Shown: positions 19,517 to 47,957 of the stretch, piece by piece | Position numbering within the stretch: position 1 is the first letter of the stretch | Layout: each line of letters starts with the position of its first letter | Assembly: GCA_028534125.1 (NCBI GenBank) | Contig: CM052816.1 | Coordinates: 15,068,001 to 15,132,000 of the forward strand | Direction of reading: 5' to 3' | Length of the DNA stretch: 64,000 bases | Source of the DNA: Lama glama | Taxonomy: Eukaryota | Notes under the pieces: generated by a model | The model's database searches: none | What the model was told of the DNA's origin: nothing | Seen by the model: only the letters and a program-made list of their open reading frames with translations | Translations under genes and position numbers: made by a program

Positions 19517-21949
19517 CATGGCATTGACATTGGCGTGGTCCCCTTTCCTATTCCGAATCTGAATACAGGAAATTGGCACACTCAGTCCTACACCAGTGGC
19601 CACATTTCTCAGGTTAGCAGCACCGTATTCCCCACATAACAGCAAACTATTGTTATCAGAACCAAGTCCCAGAGAGGCCCGATACAGATAGGTCTGAGAA
19701 AGTCTCTCCACTGTAGTGACATCTATTGTGGCTGATGTCACGCAAGGATTGGAAACCATCTTGTTTCCACACCTGGACTCCTTCGGAGAGCGACAGCAGC
19801 TCTGAGTGCAACAACCTGGGCTCTGGCTCAATTTGCTACACACAAAGAAAAGTAAGCACCCCAGAAATAAAAACGAAACACAGGCCAGGGCAATTATTAA
19901 ATGCAGGTTCTGGGCAGAAAGGTGCCCTTCTATTTCCCAGGCATCTTCAAAGTCTGGAAGGACCTGAGGAGCAGAGTTGCTCAACAGCACGCCCAATGTG
20001 ACAGAGGTAGAAAGTGATGGGTCGCCATGGTCCCGAACCACTACCACCACCCTCTGTTTAACTGCATCAGTGGGAAGAACCAAGCGAGCAGTACGGAGCT
20101 CTCCCATACTGGCTGAAATTCTGAAAAGGCTAGAGTCAGAAGCCTGAGAGATGTGGTAGGAAAGCCAAGCATTAGAGCCACTGTCTGCATCCTCTGCTAC
20201 CACTTTTGTGACCAAATGTCCTGTTCTGGCAGAGCGGGGCACAATTTCCACTGGAACAGAGCCATTTCTGGGCAAAGGAAACAGGATGACTGGAGAATTG
20301 TCATTCCTATCTACCACAAACAAGTTCACAGTCACTGTTGCACTTCTGGGAGGAAAGCCACCATCCCGGGCTTCCACTTGGAAGTGAAACCCCCTGAGCT
20401 GCTCAAAGTCAAAGGTAATTTTGGCAGAGATAGCCCCACTGGATGAATCTACTGCCACCAAGCTAGAGGCTGCCTGCCCTTCAGAGATAACATCCAACAG
20501 CTCATAGAAGACAAGGCCATTCTTTCCCAGGTCTGGGTCCTGGGCAAACACGCGTCCTAGAAAGGCCCCAGGGCCATTGTTTTCAGCCACAAAAAGTTCC
20601 TGTTTCGGTTGAGAAAAGCTTGGTGTATTATCGTTGACATCAGCAACTGACACAATCAGTGTCCTGCGAATGCTAAGCGGGGGCGAGCCACCATCAGAGG
20701 CGGTGATCAGGACTTGGTATTCACTGACCTGTTCCCGGTCCAACGGCCCATCAGTTAGCAAGCTGTAGTAGTTGTCAAAGGAAGACTTCAGCTTAAAAGG
20801 GCCTCCAGTGGACATGCTACAAATGACCTTACCATTGGGACCGAGGTCCTCATCCCTTACACTAAGGAGAGCAATCACTGTGCCAGCGGCGGCGTCCTCG
20901 GAAACCGGACTGGAGAGAGTGAGGAGGTTCACCTCGGGGGCGTGATCGTTCACATCAGTCACTTCCACCAGCAGTTTGGCAGTGCTGGCTAGACTGAAGG
21001 CGCCTTCGTCTCTGGCCTCGACATACGCCTCCAAAAGCATTTCAGGCGGACCTAGTGAAGCAGCTACCCGCACTTCCCCATTTCTTGGGTGCACGTGAAA
21101 GAAGTGTCGCAGCTTTGCTTGCGTGCTGTTACTTAAGAAGTACCGGATTTCCCCATTGGAGCCTTCATCCGGGTCCGAGGCTTGAACTCGGAATAATACA
21201 GTCCCGTTGGGGGCAGTCTCTGGCACCTTGGTGTGGTATACTGTGCGCTCAAATACAGGCGCATTGTCGTTTGTGTCCACCACGATGATGGTGACTTGTG
21301 CGTCTCCAGAGCGCACCGGCAGCCCGCCGTCCTGAGCGGTGAGCACCAGCTGATGGGTGGCACGCTGCTCCCGATCTAACGCTTTCTCCAATACCAACTC
21401 CGGGTATTCGCTGCCGTCGACCCGCGACCCCATGTCCAGGCGAAAGTGCTGGCTGGGGCTCAGGTTGTAGCTTAGCACCCCGTTGCTTCCCTCGTCGGCA
21501 TCTTGGGCATTAGGGAGTGTAAAGCGGGCTCCGGGCATCAGGAACTCGGGAATGTGCAGCTGCACGTCGCCGGCAGGGAAGTGAGGTGAGTTGTCGTTGG
21601 TGTCCAGGACGTGAATGCGCATCTTGTGCAGCTCCAGCGGGTCCTCGAGCACCAGTTCGTAGGTCAAAACGCAGGCAGCTTTGGTCCCGCACAGCTGTTC
21701 GCGGTCCGCTGGCTCTCGGACCACCAAGCTACCGCTCGCCAGATCAACCCCGAAGTAGGGCTCGCCGTGGCTGGAAAGGAAGCGAAAGTTCCTCAGGGAC
21801 AGAGCGGCCGCTGACAGCCTCAAATCCTGGGCAACATTGCCTACGGCTACGCCCCGCTCGGTCTCCTCCGACACTGAGTACTCGAGCTGTCCCGCTGCAG
21901 AGCTGCAGGAGACCCACAAGCATAGAACCGCCACCTTCCAGCCCACCAT
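19517..21949 (-). CDS. PCDHAC1: Protocadherin alpha-C1 variable (first) exon, 811 codons: signal peptide, six cadherin EC repeats, TM segment and variable cytoplasmic part. Splices to constant exons outside the window.
   Basis: The ORF from ATG 21949 reads MVGWKVAVLCLWVSCSSAAGQLEYSVSEETERGVAVG, with repeated DxNDN/DRE cadherin motifs and TM LIIALACVSFLFLGCLLFFVC. It ends RKGDHANVNAM followed by a phase-0 donor ATG|GTAAGC at 19517/19516. It closely matches human PCDHAC1 as recalled. Confidence 0.96.
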
Positions 21950-22950
21950 CCTCCCTCCCTCTCGGCGTCTTCGCTCCGCCAGCGGTGACCCGGGATCATG
22001 CTCCGGACTACCGGAGAGCACTAGCCGCGATAAAGAGCGCGGGCCGGCCGGCCGCGGCTGCCGGCTGGAGGTGCAGAGACCGCCGACGTTCGCCTTCTGA
22101 ATACCGGAATTGCCCAGGGCTGGCCGGCAGCGAGCTACGATTGCTAGACTGGAGGCTTGGCAGCCGTCTGGGAAAGCAGAGCCCGCCGGGTGCGGAGGAG
22201 CGCAGCGCCGCCTAGGGGTGCGCGGACGAGGTAAACCGCCGGGGCCGGGGAAGCGCGACCTCGGGGGATCTCGCCCCCGCCCGCTCCCCTGGGCCGGGCA
22301 GCGAGCGCGGGGCGGGGCAAGGAAGACGCTCCGAGAAACTGTCACATCTTCCCTTAAACGGCGTTTCCTAGGACAACGCCCTGAGAATGCCCTGGTTTTA
22401 ACGCTTACAGCCTCTGCCTGAAGACGGCTTGTAACTGGGGCCAAGCTCGGCTGGGCGTCTCTCGTCAAACTGAGAGCAGAACGTCCGGTCCCGGGCGCTC
22501 GGACCACCGACTCCCTACAGCGCGCGCGGAGGGGGCGAACTCCGAGAGGAACGGCGGCGGAGGCGGTGAGAGGCGGCACCGTGATCGTGAACTACTACGC
22601 CTTCGAGCCTTAAGGAAACAGGAGCCCCCAAACCAAGTACTATGGTACATTCCGTGCTGGATTCCCAGCCTCTCCGCTGCGGGTTAAAGTCTCTCCTGCA
22701 CTTTAGTATGTCCCAGGAGCCACCAAGATTTCAACAGAGGCGACCAGCGAGGGGCAAATTGGGAAACAGTATCGTCCTCAAGCTTCCCCGGGACTCTGGC
22801 TTTCCGAGACACCAGAGTGGGCGAGCCCAATTCCGGGTCTACTGCGTTCGTCCCGCTCTCTGCGGGTCAGCAGTTTCTCTCTTCCCAGGAGGCCCTACTG
22901 GAAGTGGTTTGCAAACGTCCCTCGACGCTCCGGATGAAAGAAGGGGTTAG
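21150..22950. promoter_or_regulatory. CpG island over the PCDHAC1 promoter and 5' exon
   Basis: Visibly GC- and CpG-dense against an AT-rich background, with a GGGGCGGGGC GC box near 22309-22318. Boundaries approximate. Confidence 0.85.
22203..22218 (-). promoter_or_regulatory. PCDHAC1 promoter CSE / CTCF motif
   Basis: Minus strand CCCCTAGGCGGCGCTG, about 255 bp upstream of the ATG. It resembles the CTCF core CCASYAGRKGGCRS, contains CGCT, and aligns without gaps to the PCDHA1 CSE. Confidence 0.7.
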
Positions 22951-40791: not shown

Positions 40792-41114
40792 CTCTCTGAA
40801 CTGTTCTGAATCTGCTTCTATTACACTTCTTTTCTCCGCAGAACTCAGACAAGGAGGCAGGCTGGGACTGAAGGCCATGAGATCTGCCTTAGGCGGTCCC
40901 TCCCCAGAGAACACTCTCTGCCGCCTCTGCTGCGAGTAAGACCAGCTCCCCACCGCGCTGGAGCACACCAGCCTGGGCTTCCCGGGCCCGCACGAGCCCT
41001 CGCTGGGCGGCGCCGAGCACCGCAGCGCCGTGTACAGCAGCAGCGTGAGCACAAACAGGCTGGACACCGCGCAGATGGCGACGATCAGGTACACGTTCAC
41101 ATCCACCAGAGCCG
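40792..41114 (-). CDS. 3' part of an alternate protocadherin-alpha variable exon (TM and variable cytoplasmic segment), most like the last alternate exon (PCDHA13-like)
   Basis: Reads [32 protein letters not shown]...[31 protein letters not shown], then a phase-0 donor GAG|GTGAGA at 40792/40791. The tail resembles recalled PCDHA13 ([12 protein letters not shown]...DSECLKE), not PCDHA1 (SPGLSPSLN...DLSGN). It is also the nearest alternate exon upstream of PCDHAC1. Confidence 0.8.
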
Positions 41115-41614
41115 NNNNNNNNNNNNNNNNNNNNNNNNNNNNNNNNNNNNNNNNNNNNNNNNNNNNNNNNNNNNNNNNNNNNNNNNNNNNNNNNNNNNNN
41201 NNNNNNNNNNNNNNNNNNNNNNNNNNNNNNNNNNNNNNNNNNNNNNNNNNNNNNNNNNNNNNNNNNNNNNNNNNNNNNNNNNNNNNNNNNNNNNNNNNNN
41301 NNNNNNNNNNNNNNNNNNNNNNNNNNNNNNNNNNNNNNNNNNNNNNNNNNNNNNNNNNNNNNNNNNNNNNNNNNNNNNNNNNNNNNNNNNNNNNNNNNNN
41401 NNNNNNNNNNNNNNNNNNNNNNNNNNNNNNNNNNNNNNNNNNNNNNNNNNNNNNNNNNNNNNNNNNNNNNNNNNNNNNNNNNNNNNNNNNNNNNNNNNNN
41501 NNNNNNNNNNNNNNNNNNNNNNNNNNNNNNNNNNNNNNNNNNNNNNNNNNNNNNNNNNNNNNNNNNNNNNNNNNNNNNNNNNNNNNNNNNNNNNNNNNNN
41601 NNNNNNNNNNNNNN
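41115..41614. other. Assembly gap, exactly 500 N, inside the PCDHA variable exon
   Basis: Run of N. The round length and the frame change across it indicate a placeholder size. Confidence 0.99.
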
Positions 41615-43127
41615 ACAGCGCTCGCTCGCCCACCCGCCGCTCCACCAGCGAGTACGACACCAGCGCGTTCTCCTGCGCGTCCGCGTCCCGCGCCGACACG
41701 GTGAAGATGTGGCAGCCGGGCGGGTTGTTCTCCTTCACGAACACCGTGTACTCGGGCTGCGCGAACGTGGGCGCGTTGTCGTTCACGTCGGCCACGTCCA
41801 CGGACACGCTGGCGGTGGTTGACAGCGAAGGCGAGCCCCCGTCCCGTGCGGTCACCACTAATTTATAGACCGACACTTTCTCGCGGTCCAAGGAGCTGTC
41901 CACCACCAAAGAGTAATAATTCTTGAAGGTGGACACCAGCTTGAAGGGTACATGAGGCGTCAGGGTGCAGGTCACCTGCCCATTGACACCAGAGTCACGG
42001 TCGGACAAGGAGATGAAGGCAATGACGGTGCTGAGTGGAGAGTCCTCTCTGACTGGCAAAGACAGGGACGTGACCACCAGTTCTGGAGCATTATCATTTA
42101 CATCCAGCACTTTCACTAAAACTTTGCAGTGATTTGACATTGGAGGACTTCCTTTATCAACTGCTTTTACCTGAATTTCGTAGGATTTTGTTTCTTCATA
42201 ATCCAGTCCACCAATTAGCCTAATTTCCCCTAAACTGGAATCAATTTTGAAGGTTTTTTTAATGTTAAGAGTCACATCACTGCCAAAGGAAAAGACAATT
42301 TCGCCATTTACACCTTCGTCAGCGTCAGAGGCGTTCAATGTGATCACTAACGTTCCATTTGCTGTAGTCTCTAATAAGTGAATTCTGTACACAGCCTGGG
42401 AAAACAATGGGGCATTATCATTAACGTCGAGCACCGTAATCAGCAGCTGAACTGTACCTTCCAGTACTGGTTTGCCCCCGTCGGTAGCTGTTAATAATAA
42501 ATGAAGTTCTGGTGTTTCTTCTCTATCCAAAGACTTTCTCAATTCAAGCGAAAGTGACTTACTCATTTCATCACTTGCCTGTACATCCAAAGAGAAATAA
42601 TCACTGGGGCTCAGGGTGTATGTTATCAAAGCGTTGGTACCAATGTCTGCATCAGCAGCGCCCTCTATCGGGAAGCGCGAATCCAGCAGTCTAGATTCGG
42701 GAATAAATAACCTTTGTTCTCTGGCTCTGAAGACCGGTGGATTATCGTTAATGTCCCTCACCTCCACCTCTACATGGAACACCTGCAGCGGCCTGTCCAC
42801 GATCACCTCCAGGTGGATACTACATTCCGCGCTCCGCCCGCACAGCTCCTCTCGGTCGATCCGAGAATTCACAAACAAAATGCCATTCTGCAGGTTTACC
42901 TCCAGAAGGTCCCCGCGGACTTTGGACACCACTCGGAACAGGCGGGGCACCAGCTCCGCCACCTCCAGCCCCAGGTCCTGCGCGATGCGACCCACGAAGG
43001 TGCCGTGTTTGGCCTCCTCAGGGACTGAGTAGTGGATCTGACCGCTGCCGGCCTCCCAGGCTGCGAGGAGCAGAAGCGAGAGCAGCAGGCGCCGGGCTCC
43101 CTTGCCTCCTCTCCCAGCAAACAGCAT
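41615..43127 (-). CDS. PCDHA1: 5' part of an alternate protocadherin-alpha variable exon (signal peptide, EC1 to mid-EC5), PCDHA1 orthologue. Cut by an assembly gap.
   Basis: Open frame from ATG 43127, MLFAGRGG...[12 protein letters not shown]2-EC3 segments [50 protein letters not shown] and [27 protein letters not shown] match recalled human PCDHA1. No further PCDHA exon lies in the 21 kb upstream, as expected for the first gene of the cluster. Confidence 0.85.
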
Positions 43128-46964: not shown

Positions 46965-47957
46965 ACCTAATTAAACTTACAAGCTTCTGCACAGCAAAGG
47001 AAACCATAAGTAAACAAAAAGACAACCTACTGAATGGGAGAAAGTTTTTGCAAATGAAACCGACAAAAGCTTCATCTCCAGAATATATAAGCAGCTCATA
47101 CAACTTAAGAAGAAGAAAACAAACAACCCAATCCAAAATGGGCAAAAGATCTAAACAAGCAATTCTCCAAAGAAGACATACAAATGATCAATAGGCACAT
47201 GAAAAAATGCTCCATATCACTAATTATCAGGGAANNNNNNNNNNNNNNNNNNNNNNNNNNNNNNNNNNNNNNNNNNNNNNNNNNNNNNNNNNNNNNNNNN
47301 NNNNNNNNNNNNNNNNNNNNNNNNNNNNNNNNNNTACCATATGACCCAGTCATCCCACTCCTGGGCATATATCCAGAAGGAACCCTACTTCAGGATGACA
47401 CCTGCACCTCAGTGTTCATAGCAGTACTATTTACAATAGCCAAGACATGGAAGCAGCCTAAATGTCCATCAACAGATGACTGGATAAAGATGTAGTATAT
47501 TTATACAATGGAATACTATTCAGCCATAAAAATTGACAACATAACGCCATTTGCAGCAACATGGATGTTCCTGGAGAATGTAAGTAAGTGAAGTAAGTAA
47601 GCCAGAAAGAGAAAGAAAAATACCATATGAGATCGCTATGTGTGGAATGTGTAAAAAAAAAACATAAATACAAAACAGAAACAGACTCATAGACATAGAA
47701 TACAAGCTTGTGGTTGCCAAGGGGGCGGGGGAAGGGGGCAGGAAGGGACAGACTGGGATTTTAAAATGTAGAATAGATAAACAAGATTATACTGTATAGC
47801 ACAGAGAAATATATACAAGATCTTATGGCAGCTCACAGCAAAAGAGAATGTGATAATGAATATATATACGTTCATGTATAACTGAAAAATTGTGCTTTAC
47901 ACTGGAATTTGACACAACATTGTAAAATGACTATAACTCAATTAAAAAAGTTAAAAA
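46965..47957 (+). mobile_element. Young 5'-truncated L1 (3' ORF2 and 3'UTR)
   Basis: L1 ORF2 C-terminal motifs ([29 protein letters not shown]) and an A tail. Perfect 14-bp TSD aaaaggattacagg at 46951-46964 and 47958-47971. Confidence 0.9.
47235..47334. other. Assembly gap, exactly 100 N, inside a young L1 copy
   Basis: Run of N flanked on both sides by L1 ORF2 3' sequence. Confidence 0.99.

Follow-up and report, generated by a model that had tools for sequence, protein, structure and literature searches.

A variable exon split by a 500-N gap

The window, by which we mean the whole 64,000-nucleotide stretch analysed, covers positions 15068001-15132000 of scaffold C1 in an assembly of 2.35 Gb and 1,072,352 contigs. 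It contains two runs of N, one of exactly 500 and one of 100, together with the protocadherin alpha (PCDHA) features listed in Table 1. On one side of the 500-N gap, the head frame starts with an ATG at 43127 and runs for 504 codons on the minus strand to the motif GERAL, ending at 41616, with one spare base between its last codon and the gap. On the other side, the tail frame of 107 codons (41112-40792) extends from ALVDVNVY to DSEQFRE, and a GT splice donor comes next at 40791-40790. Head and tail are in different frames: 43127-41112 is 2015, which leaves a remainder of 2 on division by 3, an offset that exists because the length of the gap is arbitrary. In the head, Pfam analysis identified Cadherin_2, a cadherin-like domain from the N terminus of protocadherins, and four Cadherin stretches; in the tail it identified the cadherin C-terminal family. 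A complete variable exon, with ~2.4 kb of uninterrupted frame from ATG to donor, six cadherin repeats, a transmembrane segment and a short cytoplasmic part, was not found here; between the ATG and the donor lie the 500 N, a frame shift and a change from one paralogue to another.

The contig bearing the head is 5.6 kb long, and its other boundary is the 100-N gap, which was presumably introduced by the draft assembler. The tail is N-free and contiguous down to an alpha-C1-like exon 19 kb downstream. This exon carries cadherin domains by Pfam and matches the C-terminal portion of a Bos mutus protocadherin alpha-C1 record, itself a fused model, at 89% identity (533/602). The assembly was searched with three queries (head, tail and an alpha signal peptide), none of which revealed another alpha-alternate piece on C1 within the window; by these searches, the split exon has no other alternate exon in the 21 kb before it or in the 19 kb after it. 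The N-run count, the translations and these searches bear out the preliminary description, which had reported a single variable exon split by exactly 500 N, with a frame change across the gap and no other alternate exon nearby.

Table 1. Positions of the split exon, its gaps and the neighbouring exon in the window
Feature	Position	Strand	Description
Head piece	41615..43127	-	Assigned PCDHA1 variable exon front: signal peptide, EC1 to part of EC5, residues 1-504
Tail piece	40792..41112	-	Assigned PCDHA13 variable exon back: end of EC6 linker, transmembrane segment, cytoplasmic start; 107 residues
Homogenised EC5 part of head flank	41615..41800	-	Nucleotide identity to contigs of other exons
Homogenised transmembrane and proximal cytoplasmic segment of tail flank	40900..41114	-	Nucleotide identity to 24 other loci
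500-N scaffolding gap	41115..41614	.	Length conventional, not measured
100-N gap	47235..47334	.	N-run count; 4.1 kb upstream of the PCDHA1 ATG
PCDHAC1-like variable exon	19517..21949	-	ATG at 21949; putative GTAAGC donor after 19517

Identity of the two flanks and homogenisation at the break points

We compared the head with proteins, considering the best 120 of 8000 scored. Among these, the head showed 99% identity to protocadherin alpha-1 isoform X5 of Camelus bactrianus (P0026), 86% to human alpha-1 (P0082) and 84-91% to alpha-1 of bats, carnivores, perissodactyls, primates, rodents and xenarthrans, and only 57-74% to matches named alpha-3 to alpha-13. The reference proteins P0026 and P0082 share the signal peptide and the EC1-EC5 order of the head. 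No alpha exon start or end was found upstream of the head on C1 in the window, with contiguity through the 100-N gap, which places the head first in the array. By its sequence, the head piece is assigned as the PCDHA1 orthologue and the first alternate exon of the array.

Comparison of the tail with longer proteins gave, at full coverage, the best matches to alpha-13 of Camelus ferus and C. dromedarius (94%); an alpha-13-like protein of Vicugna pacos was 97% identical over 94% of the query. Identity to alpha-13 in other orders was 78-89% (cetaceans, lemurs, horses, cats and deer: 85-89%), and camel alpha-1 reached only 83%. Since most of the tail is common to all alpha paralogues, the paralogue-specific comparison was restricted to the residues past the shared FSP motif and made against 12 tails of the assembly. 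The results showed that the specific end of camel alpha-13 scored 128 on the window tail vs 49 on the next best of the 12. We assign the tail piece as the PCDHA13 orthologue, the last alternate exon before alpha-C1.

The missing counterpart of each piece was located on unplaced contigs. Behind the head at 41615-43127 the alpha-1-specific end is absent, and the end across the gap is of the alpha-13 type. Among the same 12 tails, the specific end of camel alpha-1 scored 132 on the unplaced contig C672255 vs 61 on the next best, with the window tail holding no place among the three best listed scores, and the human alpha-1 end scored 91 on C672255, 56 on C1067465 (next best) and 45 on the window tail. 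In the PCDHA1 reference exon, 187 further residues and the alpha-1-specific tail follow the part that corresponds to the head, whereas in this assembly that tail lies on C672255 and not past the gap. Similarly, the tail piece, including its paralogue-specific end, is 94-97% identical to the PCDHA13 references (Camelus ferus isoform X3, P0148; Vicugna pacos, P0151), but the proper PCDHA13 head, with a different signal peptide and its own EC1-EC4, sits on the unplaced contigs C104665 and C349074 and not before the window tail. The true start of alpha-13 on C104665 was identical to the Vicugna alpha-13-like protein at 114/114 residues, and its continuation on C349074 was 99.3% identical over 433 residues.

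Nucleotide identity between the window exon and other loci varied strongly by segment. It was 67-70% in EC2-EC3 and 67-79% in EC4, rose to 89-95% in the EC1 block, and reached 97.2-100% in the transmembrane and proximal cytoplasmic segment (24 other loci). Both flanks of the gap fall in such near-identical sequence. Over its last 186 nt, the head flank showed 100% identity to contigs of five other exons (C349074, C92719, C992914, C740033 and C838975), within the 60-132 nt that each contig covers, and over its first 215 nt the tail flank showed 97-100% identity to 24 other loci. Among the fetched loci, no match elsewhere was seen for the unique tail end, the intron or the upstream DNA. Other contigs stop and start at places that coincide with the two break points of the window: the other head contigs end at residues 64-486, and the tail contigs start near ALVDVNVY. 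From GERAL to (A/E)LVDVNVY, 6/7 reference proteins have 187 residues (561 nt), and the seventh has 189. Repeated gene conversion has been described for mammalian protocadherin genes, in a study that tested ECD5 and ECD6 for gene conversion (PMC2764143).

These comparisons agree with three earlier proposals: that the exon is a chimera, the head now matching PCDHA1 best and the tail PCDHA13, with no single paralogue best for both flanks; that its gap lies in the homogenised segment; and that ~560 nt should separate ERAL from ALVDVNVY.

Interior exons on unplaced contigs and the order of the array

Searching the assembly with the head, with 85 of 409 candidates scored, yielded 91 matches. Identity was at least 68% in 27 of them, and 26/27 were on unplaced contigs; the remaining matches, at 49% or less, were beta, gamma or C-type exons and other cadherins. 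The beta and gamma clusters were likewise found scattered onto unplaced contigs.

The tail query matched 26 places, of which 25 were on unplaced contigs; in translation, 16 of the 26 matches extend to the paralogue-specific end, and these comprise 11 distinct ends. With a signal-peptide query of 64 residues, 27 matches were obtained, comprising 11 alpha-type exon starts (68-97%), 2 partial matches and 14 matches at 57% or less. This 64-residue query also located a camel alpha-10-type exon start on C1067465, which the full-length query had missed under its stricter filter. The assembly contains at least 11 starts and at least 11 ends of alpha-alternate exons, one of each in the window; the number 11 is a lower bound, as the assembly searches score the best candidates only. 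The interior starts and ends appear as open frames. A scaffolding join that hides unplaced paralogues had been suggested in the preliminary description, and the ten further exon starts and ten further ends on unplaced contigs speak for it, being the outcome which that description had named as refuting a real deletion.

Nine contigs carry a junction, in which 2.7-5.7 kb separate the end of one exon from the start of the next on the same strand (C672255, C931805, C70371, C926582, C1067465, C84333, C740033, C992914 and C104665). Contig C1003025 (5036 bp) carries an exon start and 3.7 kb of upstream DNA without an exon end, and the end of the second exon is known only from the ~400-bp contigs C151696 and C191329. 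The ten interior contigs measure 3484-7292 bp and total 51.8 kb, all being below 15 kb; four of these lengths were reported, and six were deduced from where the fetched loci stop. From the 51.8 kb and the missing mid-exon parts, the stretch hidden behind the 500-N gap may be estimated at ~60-70 kb, or about ten exon-plus-spacer units.

Exon starts were paired with exon ends using intact or fused camelid proteins (P0026, P0003, P0127, P0195/P0183, P0125, P0176, P0210, P0194/P0202 and P0148/P0151), and head fragments were assigned by their identity to camelid proteins outside the homogenised EC1 block. Joining head fragments by 189-nt identical overlaps was tried and rejected, the overlap lying in the EC1 homogenised block, which several paralogues share. 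The pieces form a single linear chain of 11 exons, with the window head at one free end and the window tail at the other. The window head (alpha-1) leads to C672255, then to the second exon (C151696/C191329), to C1003025 and to C931805. From there the chain runs through C70371, C926582, C1067465, C84333 and C740033, and then through C992914 to C104665, which bears the alpha-13 start and continues on C349074, and so to the window tail and alpha-C1, 19 kb downstream.

Two of these links were reached by elimination. The end of the second exon (C151696, C191329) is probably followed by the start of the third (C1003025), a link made by elimination alone. The start of the tenth exon was paired with its end by elimination together with the required linearity of the chain, the only alternative closing a circle. 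A Vicugna model (P0023) runs from the head of the tenth exon straight into the alpha-13 start, which favours this placing of the tenth exon. Camelid models fuse alpha-1 with the second exon as well as the tenth exon with alpha-13, and both fusions support the same order.

Probable origin of the join and comparison with known systems

With each flank assigned to its paralogue, the interior pieces present and linked, and the break points lying in homogenised sequence, the PCDHA exon in the window is almost certainly a false scaffold join between the opening part of the array's first exon and the closing part of its last. Such a join would originate in a fragmented short-read draft that was afterwards scaffolded to chromosome scale. 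The alternate exons share near-identical stretches, namely the EC5-EC6-transmembrane segment and the shorter EC1 block, and the draft assembler would therefore have broken every exon there. The resulting small contigs would each hold the unique end of one exon, intergenic DNA and the front part of the next exon and, at 3.5-7.3 kb, would have fallen below the size used in Hi-C scaffolding and been left unplaced. Only the two outer pieces, the PCDHA1 front with its upstream DNA and the PCDHA13 back with the DNA down to PCDHAC1, would have been on long draft scaffolds, and the scaffolder would have put them side by side with the standard 500 N. The product resembles one exon with a small gap because ~561 nt of any single exon spans both break points.

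The N tracts that Hi-C scaffolders write into their joins all have one fixed length, which in 3d-dna and SALSA2 is 500 by default (PMC9292758). By default, 3D-DNA takes only contigs of at least 15 kb and sends smaller ones to debris (PMC10659057). Both marks of such a join, a gap of uniform default length and gap-filling contigs below the placement threshold, were found here. From the gap length and the number of contigs, the scaffolder was probably of the 3d-dna or SALSA2 type.

Three other explanations were weighed. The sequenced animal could be a heterozygote in which one haplotype has the full array and is the source of the unplaced contigs, while the other carries an alpha-1/alpha-13 hybrid exon, which the scaffold would resemble by chance. 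We consider this very unlikely, and equally so its corollary that the hybrid haplotype arose by unequal crossover in the homogenised EC5-EC6 segment, with the loss of nine alternate isoforms on that chromosome. Nothing speaks positively for it, and in the head and tail searches no contig of the assembly joined alpha-1-specific to alpha-13-specific sequence, the flanks meeting through N only. A second haplotype is also superfluous where an artefact accounts for everything, and the scattering of beta and gamma exons points to a general effect of the assembly.

The interior array could instead lie elsewhere in the genome after a translocation or inversion, the gap then being a real small gap in a hybrid exon. 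The unplaced contigs have no positional information of their own, which leaves room for this explanation. However, they form a chain from the alpha-1 end to the alpha-13 start whose free ends exactly complement the two pieces in the window, and the camelid models with fused neighbours at either end of the array (alpha-1 plus the second exon, the tenth exon plus alpha-13) favour the same order; relocation is extremely improbable.

A homozygous unequal crossover between PCDHA1 and PCDHA13, the array having collapsed to one hybrid exon and the 500 N standing for ~560 nt of unresolved sequence, would fit the single alternate exon on the placed scaffold and the closeness of the expected 561-nt fill to the gap length, but its probability is practically nil: the alpha-1 end is joined to the start of the second exon on C672255, the end of the tenth exon is joined to the alpha-13 start on C104665, eight other exon starts and ends are present as open frames, and 500 N is what a program writes by default. 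The presence of ten interior exon starts and as many interior ends in the same assembly refutes a homozygous deletion, and the real collapse to one hybrid isoform that the preliminary description had offered as its alternative fails in its homozygous form on these interior exons, which lie on other contigs.

Any gene model bridging the 500-N gap would be a false PCDHA1/13 hybrid gene, which a comparative study could misread as a camelid loss of neuronal self-recognition diversity. The importance of the finding lies in assembly quality and not in biology, and it calls for caution in annotation and in counting protocadherin isoforms from this assembly, whose beta and gamma clusters look affected in the same way. 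The locus exemplifies how tandem arrays homogenised by gene conversion can drop out of Hi-C-scaffolded short-read assemblies, the outer half-exons being joined and the interior going to debris, with a conventional gap length that happens to mimic the missing piece of one exon. The unplaced contigs by themselves suffice to restore the array and to put its exons in order, which gives no fewer than 11 alternate exons in addition to alpha-C1 and alpha-C2.

The natural deletion polymorphisms inside the human PCDHA array would be the real counterpart of the alternative in the preliminary description, as products of unequal recombination between homogenised alpha exons; the present assembly differs from these in that its interior exons are present and no such allele is evident. 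With the joins made by Hi-C scaffolders such as 3d-dna and SALSA2, the gap shares its exact 500 N, and the present assembly has the matching make-up of chromosome-length scaffolds plus about a million small contigs; it differs in that the program is deduced, and in that the second gap of the window has 100 N, unlike the 500 N. Fused PCDHA models are also found elsewhere (P0003, P0125, P0127, P0023 and P0078), in which one alpha exon runs into the next or into alpha-C1, because assemblies and predictions fail in the same homogenised segments. These public models link neighbouring exons, whereas the join in the window skips the whole interior of the array.

Breakpoints and placement of the alpha exon parts

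We tabulated the features bearing on the joined exon and its surroundings.

Features of the window considered here
Feature	Position	Strand	Remark
Open alpha-C1 frame upstream of the ATG	21950-22591	minus	214 codons
RVFSGEG in the alpha-13 tail	40930-40960	minus	
Second homogenised block, in EC1	42790-42990		89-95% nucleotide identity to 24 other loci
100-N gap	47235-47334		4.1 kb upstream of the alpha-1 ATG

Four unplaced contigs (C104665, C70371, C926582 and C1067465) were found to end within the EC1 block or just past it, and the draft assembly therefore breaks at two sites per exon. Given the 100-N gap upstream of the ATG, the contig carrying the alpha-1 head is thus 5.6 kb long and flanked by gaps on both sides. 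The draft scaffolder determines where the head is placed with respect to the 17 kb upstream. At the site where the window's tail reads RVFSGEG, RVCSGEG was found in all 15 of the other tails of the assembly that reach the paralogue-specific end, as well as in camel alpha-13; human alpha-1 shares the F of the window's tail. The open stretch preceding the alpha-C1 ATG has a G+C content of 60-63%; it probably does not code for protein but forms a CpG-island promoter region.

Duplicate contigs and the beta and gamma clusters

A single stretch of the seventh exon in the alpha chain is carried by two loci on unplaced contigs, L061 (C848864) and L063 (C961294), with 99.27% identity over 686 nt. The two contigs probably represent either different alleles or error variants that were retained separately as debris. 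The pairs C879349/C879955 and C303333/C303355 look like duplicates of the same kind.

Among the matches listed in the assembly searches, beta- and gamma-type protocadherin exons lay mostly on small unplaced contigs (e.g. L011-L030), and about 11 were located on the placed scaffold, C1, at 14820000-14966000. Their identity to the alpha-1 head was 43-49%. The beta and gamma clusters look collapsed, like the alpha array.

Fused models in public records

In five public protein records from camels, alpaca and wild yak (P0003, P0125, P0127, P0023 and P0078), either two adjacent alpha exons or an alpha exon and alpha-C1 were fused, and one of these models contained a frame-shifted transmembrane segment. 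Such fused PCDHA protein models represent an error of the same kind, made in assemblies or annotations other than this one.
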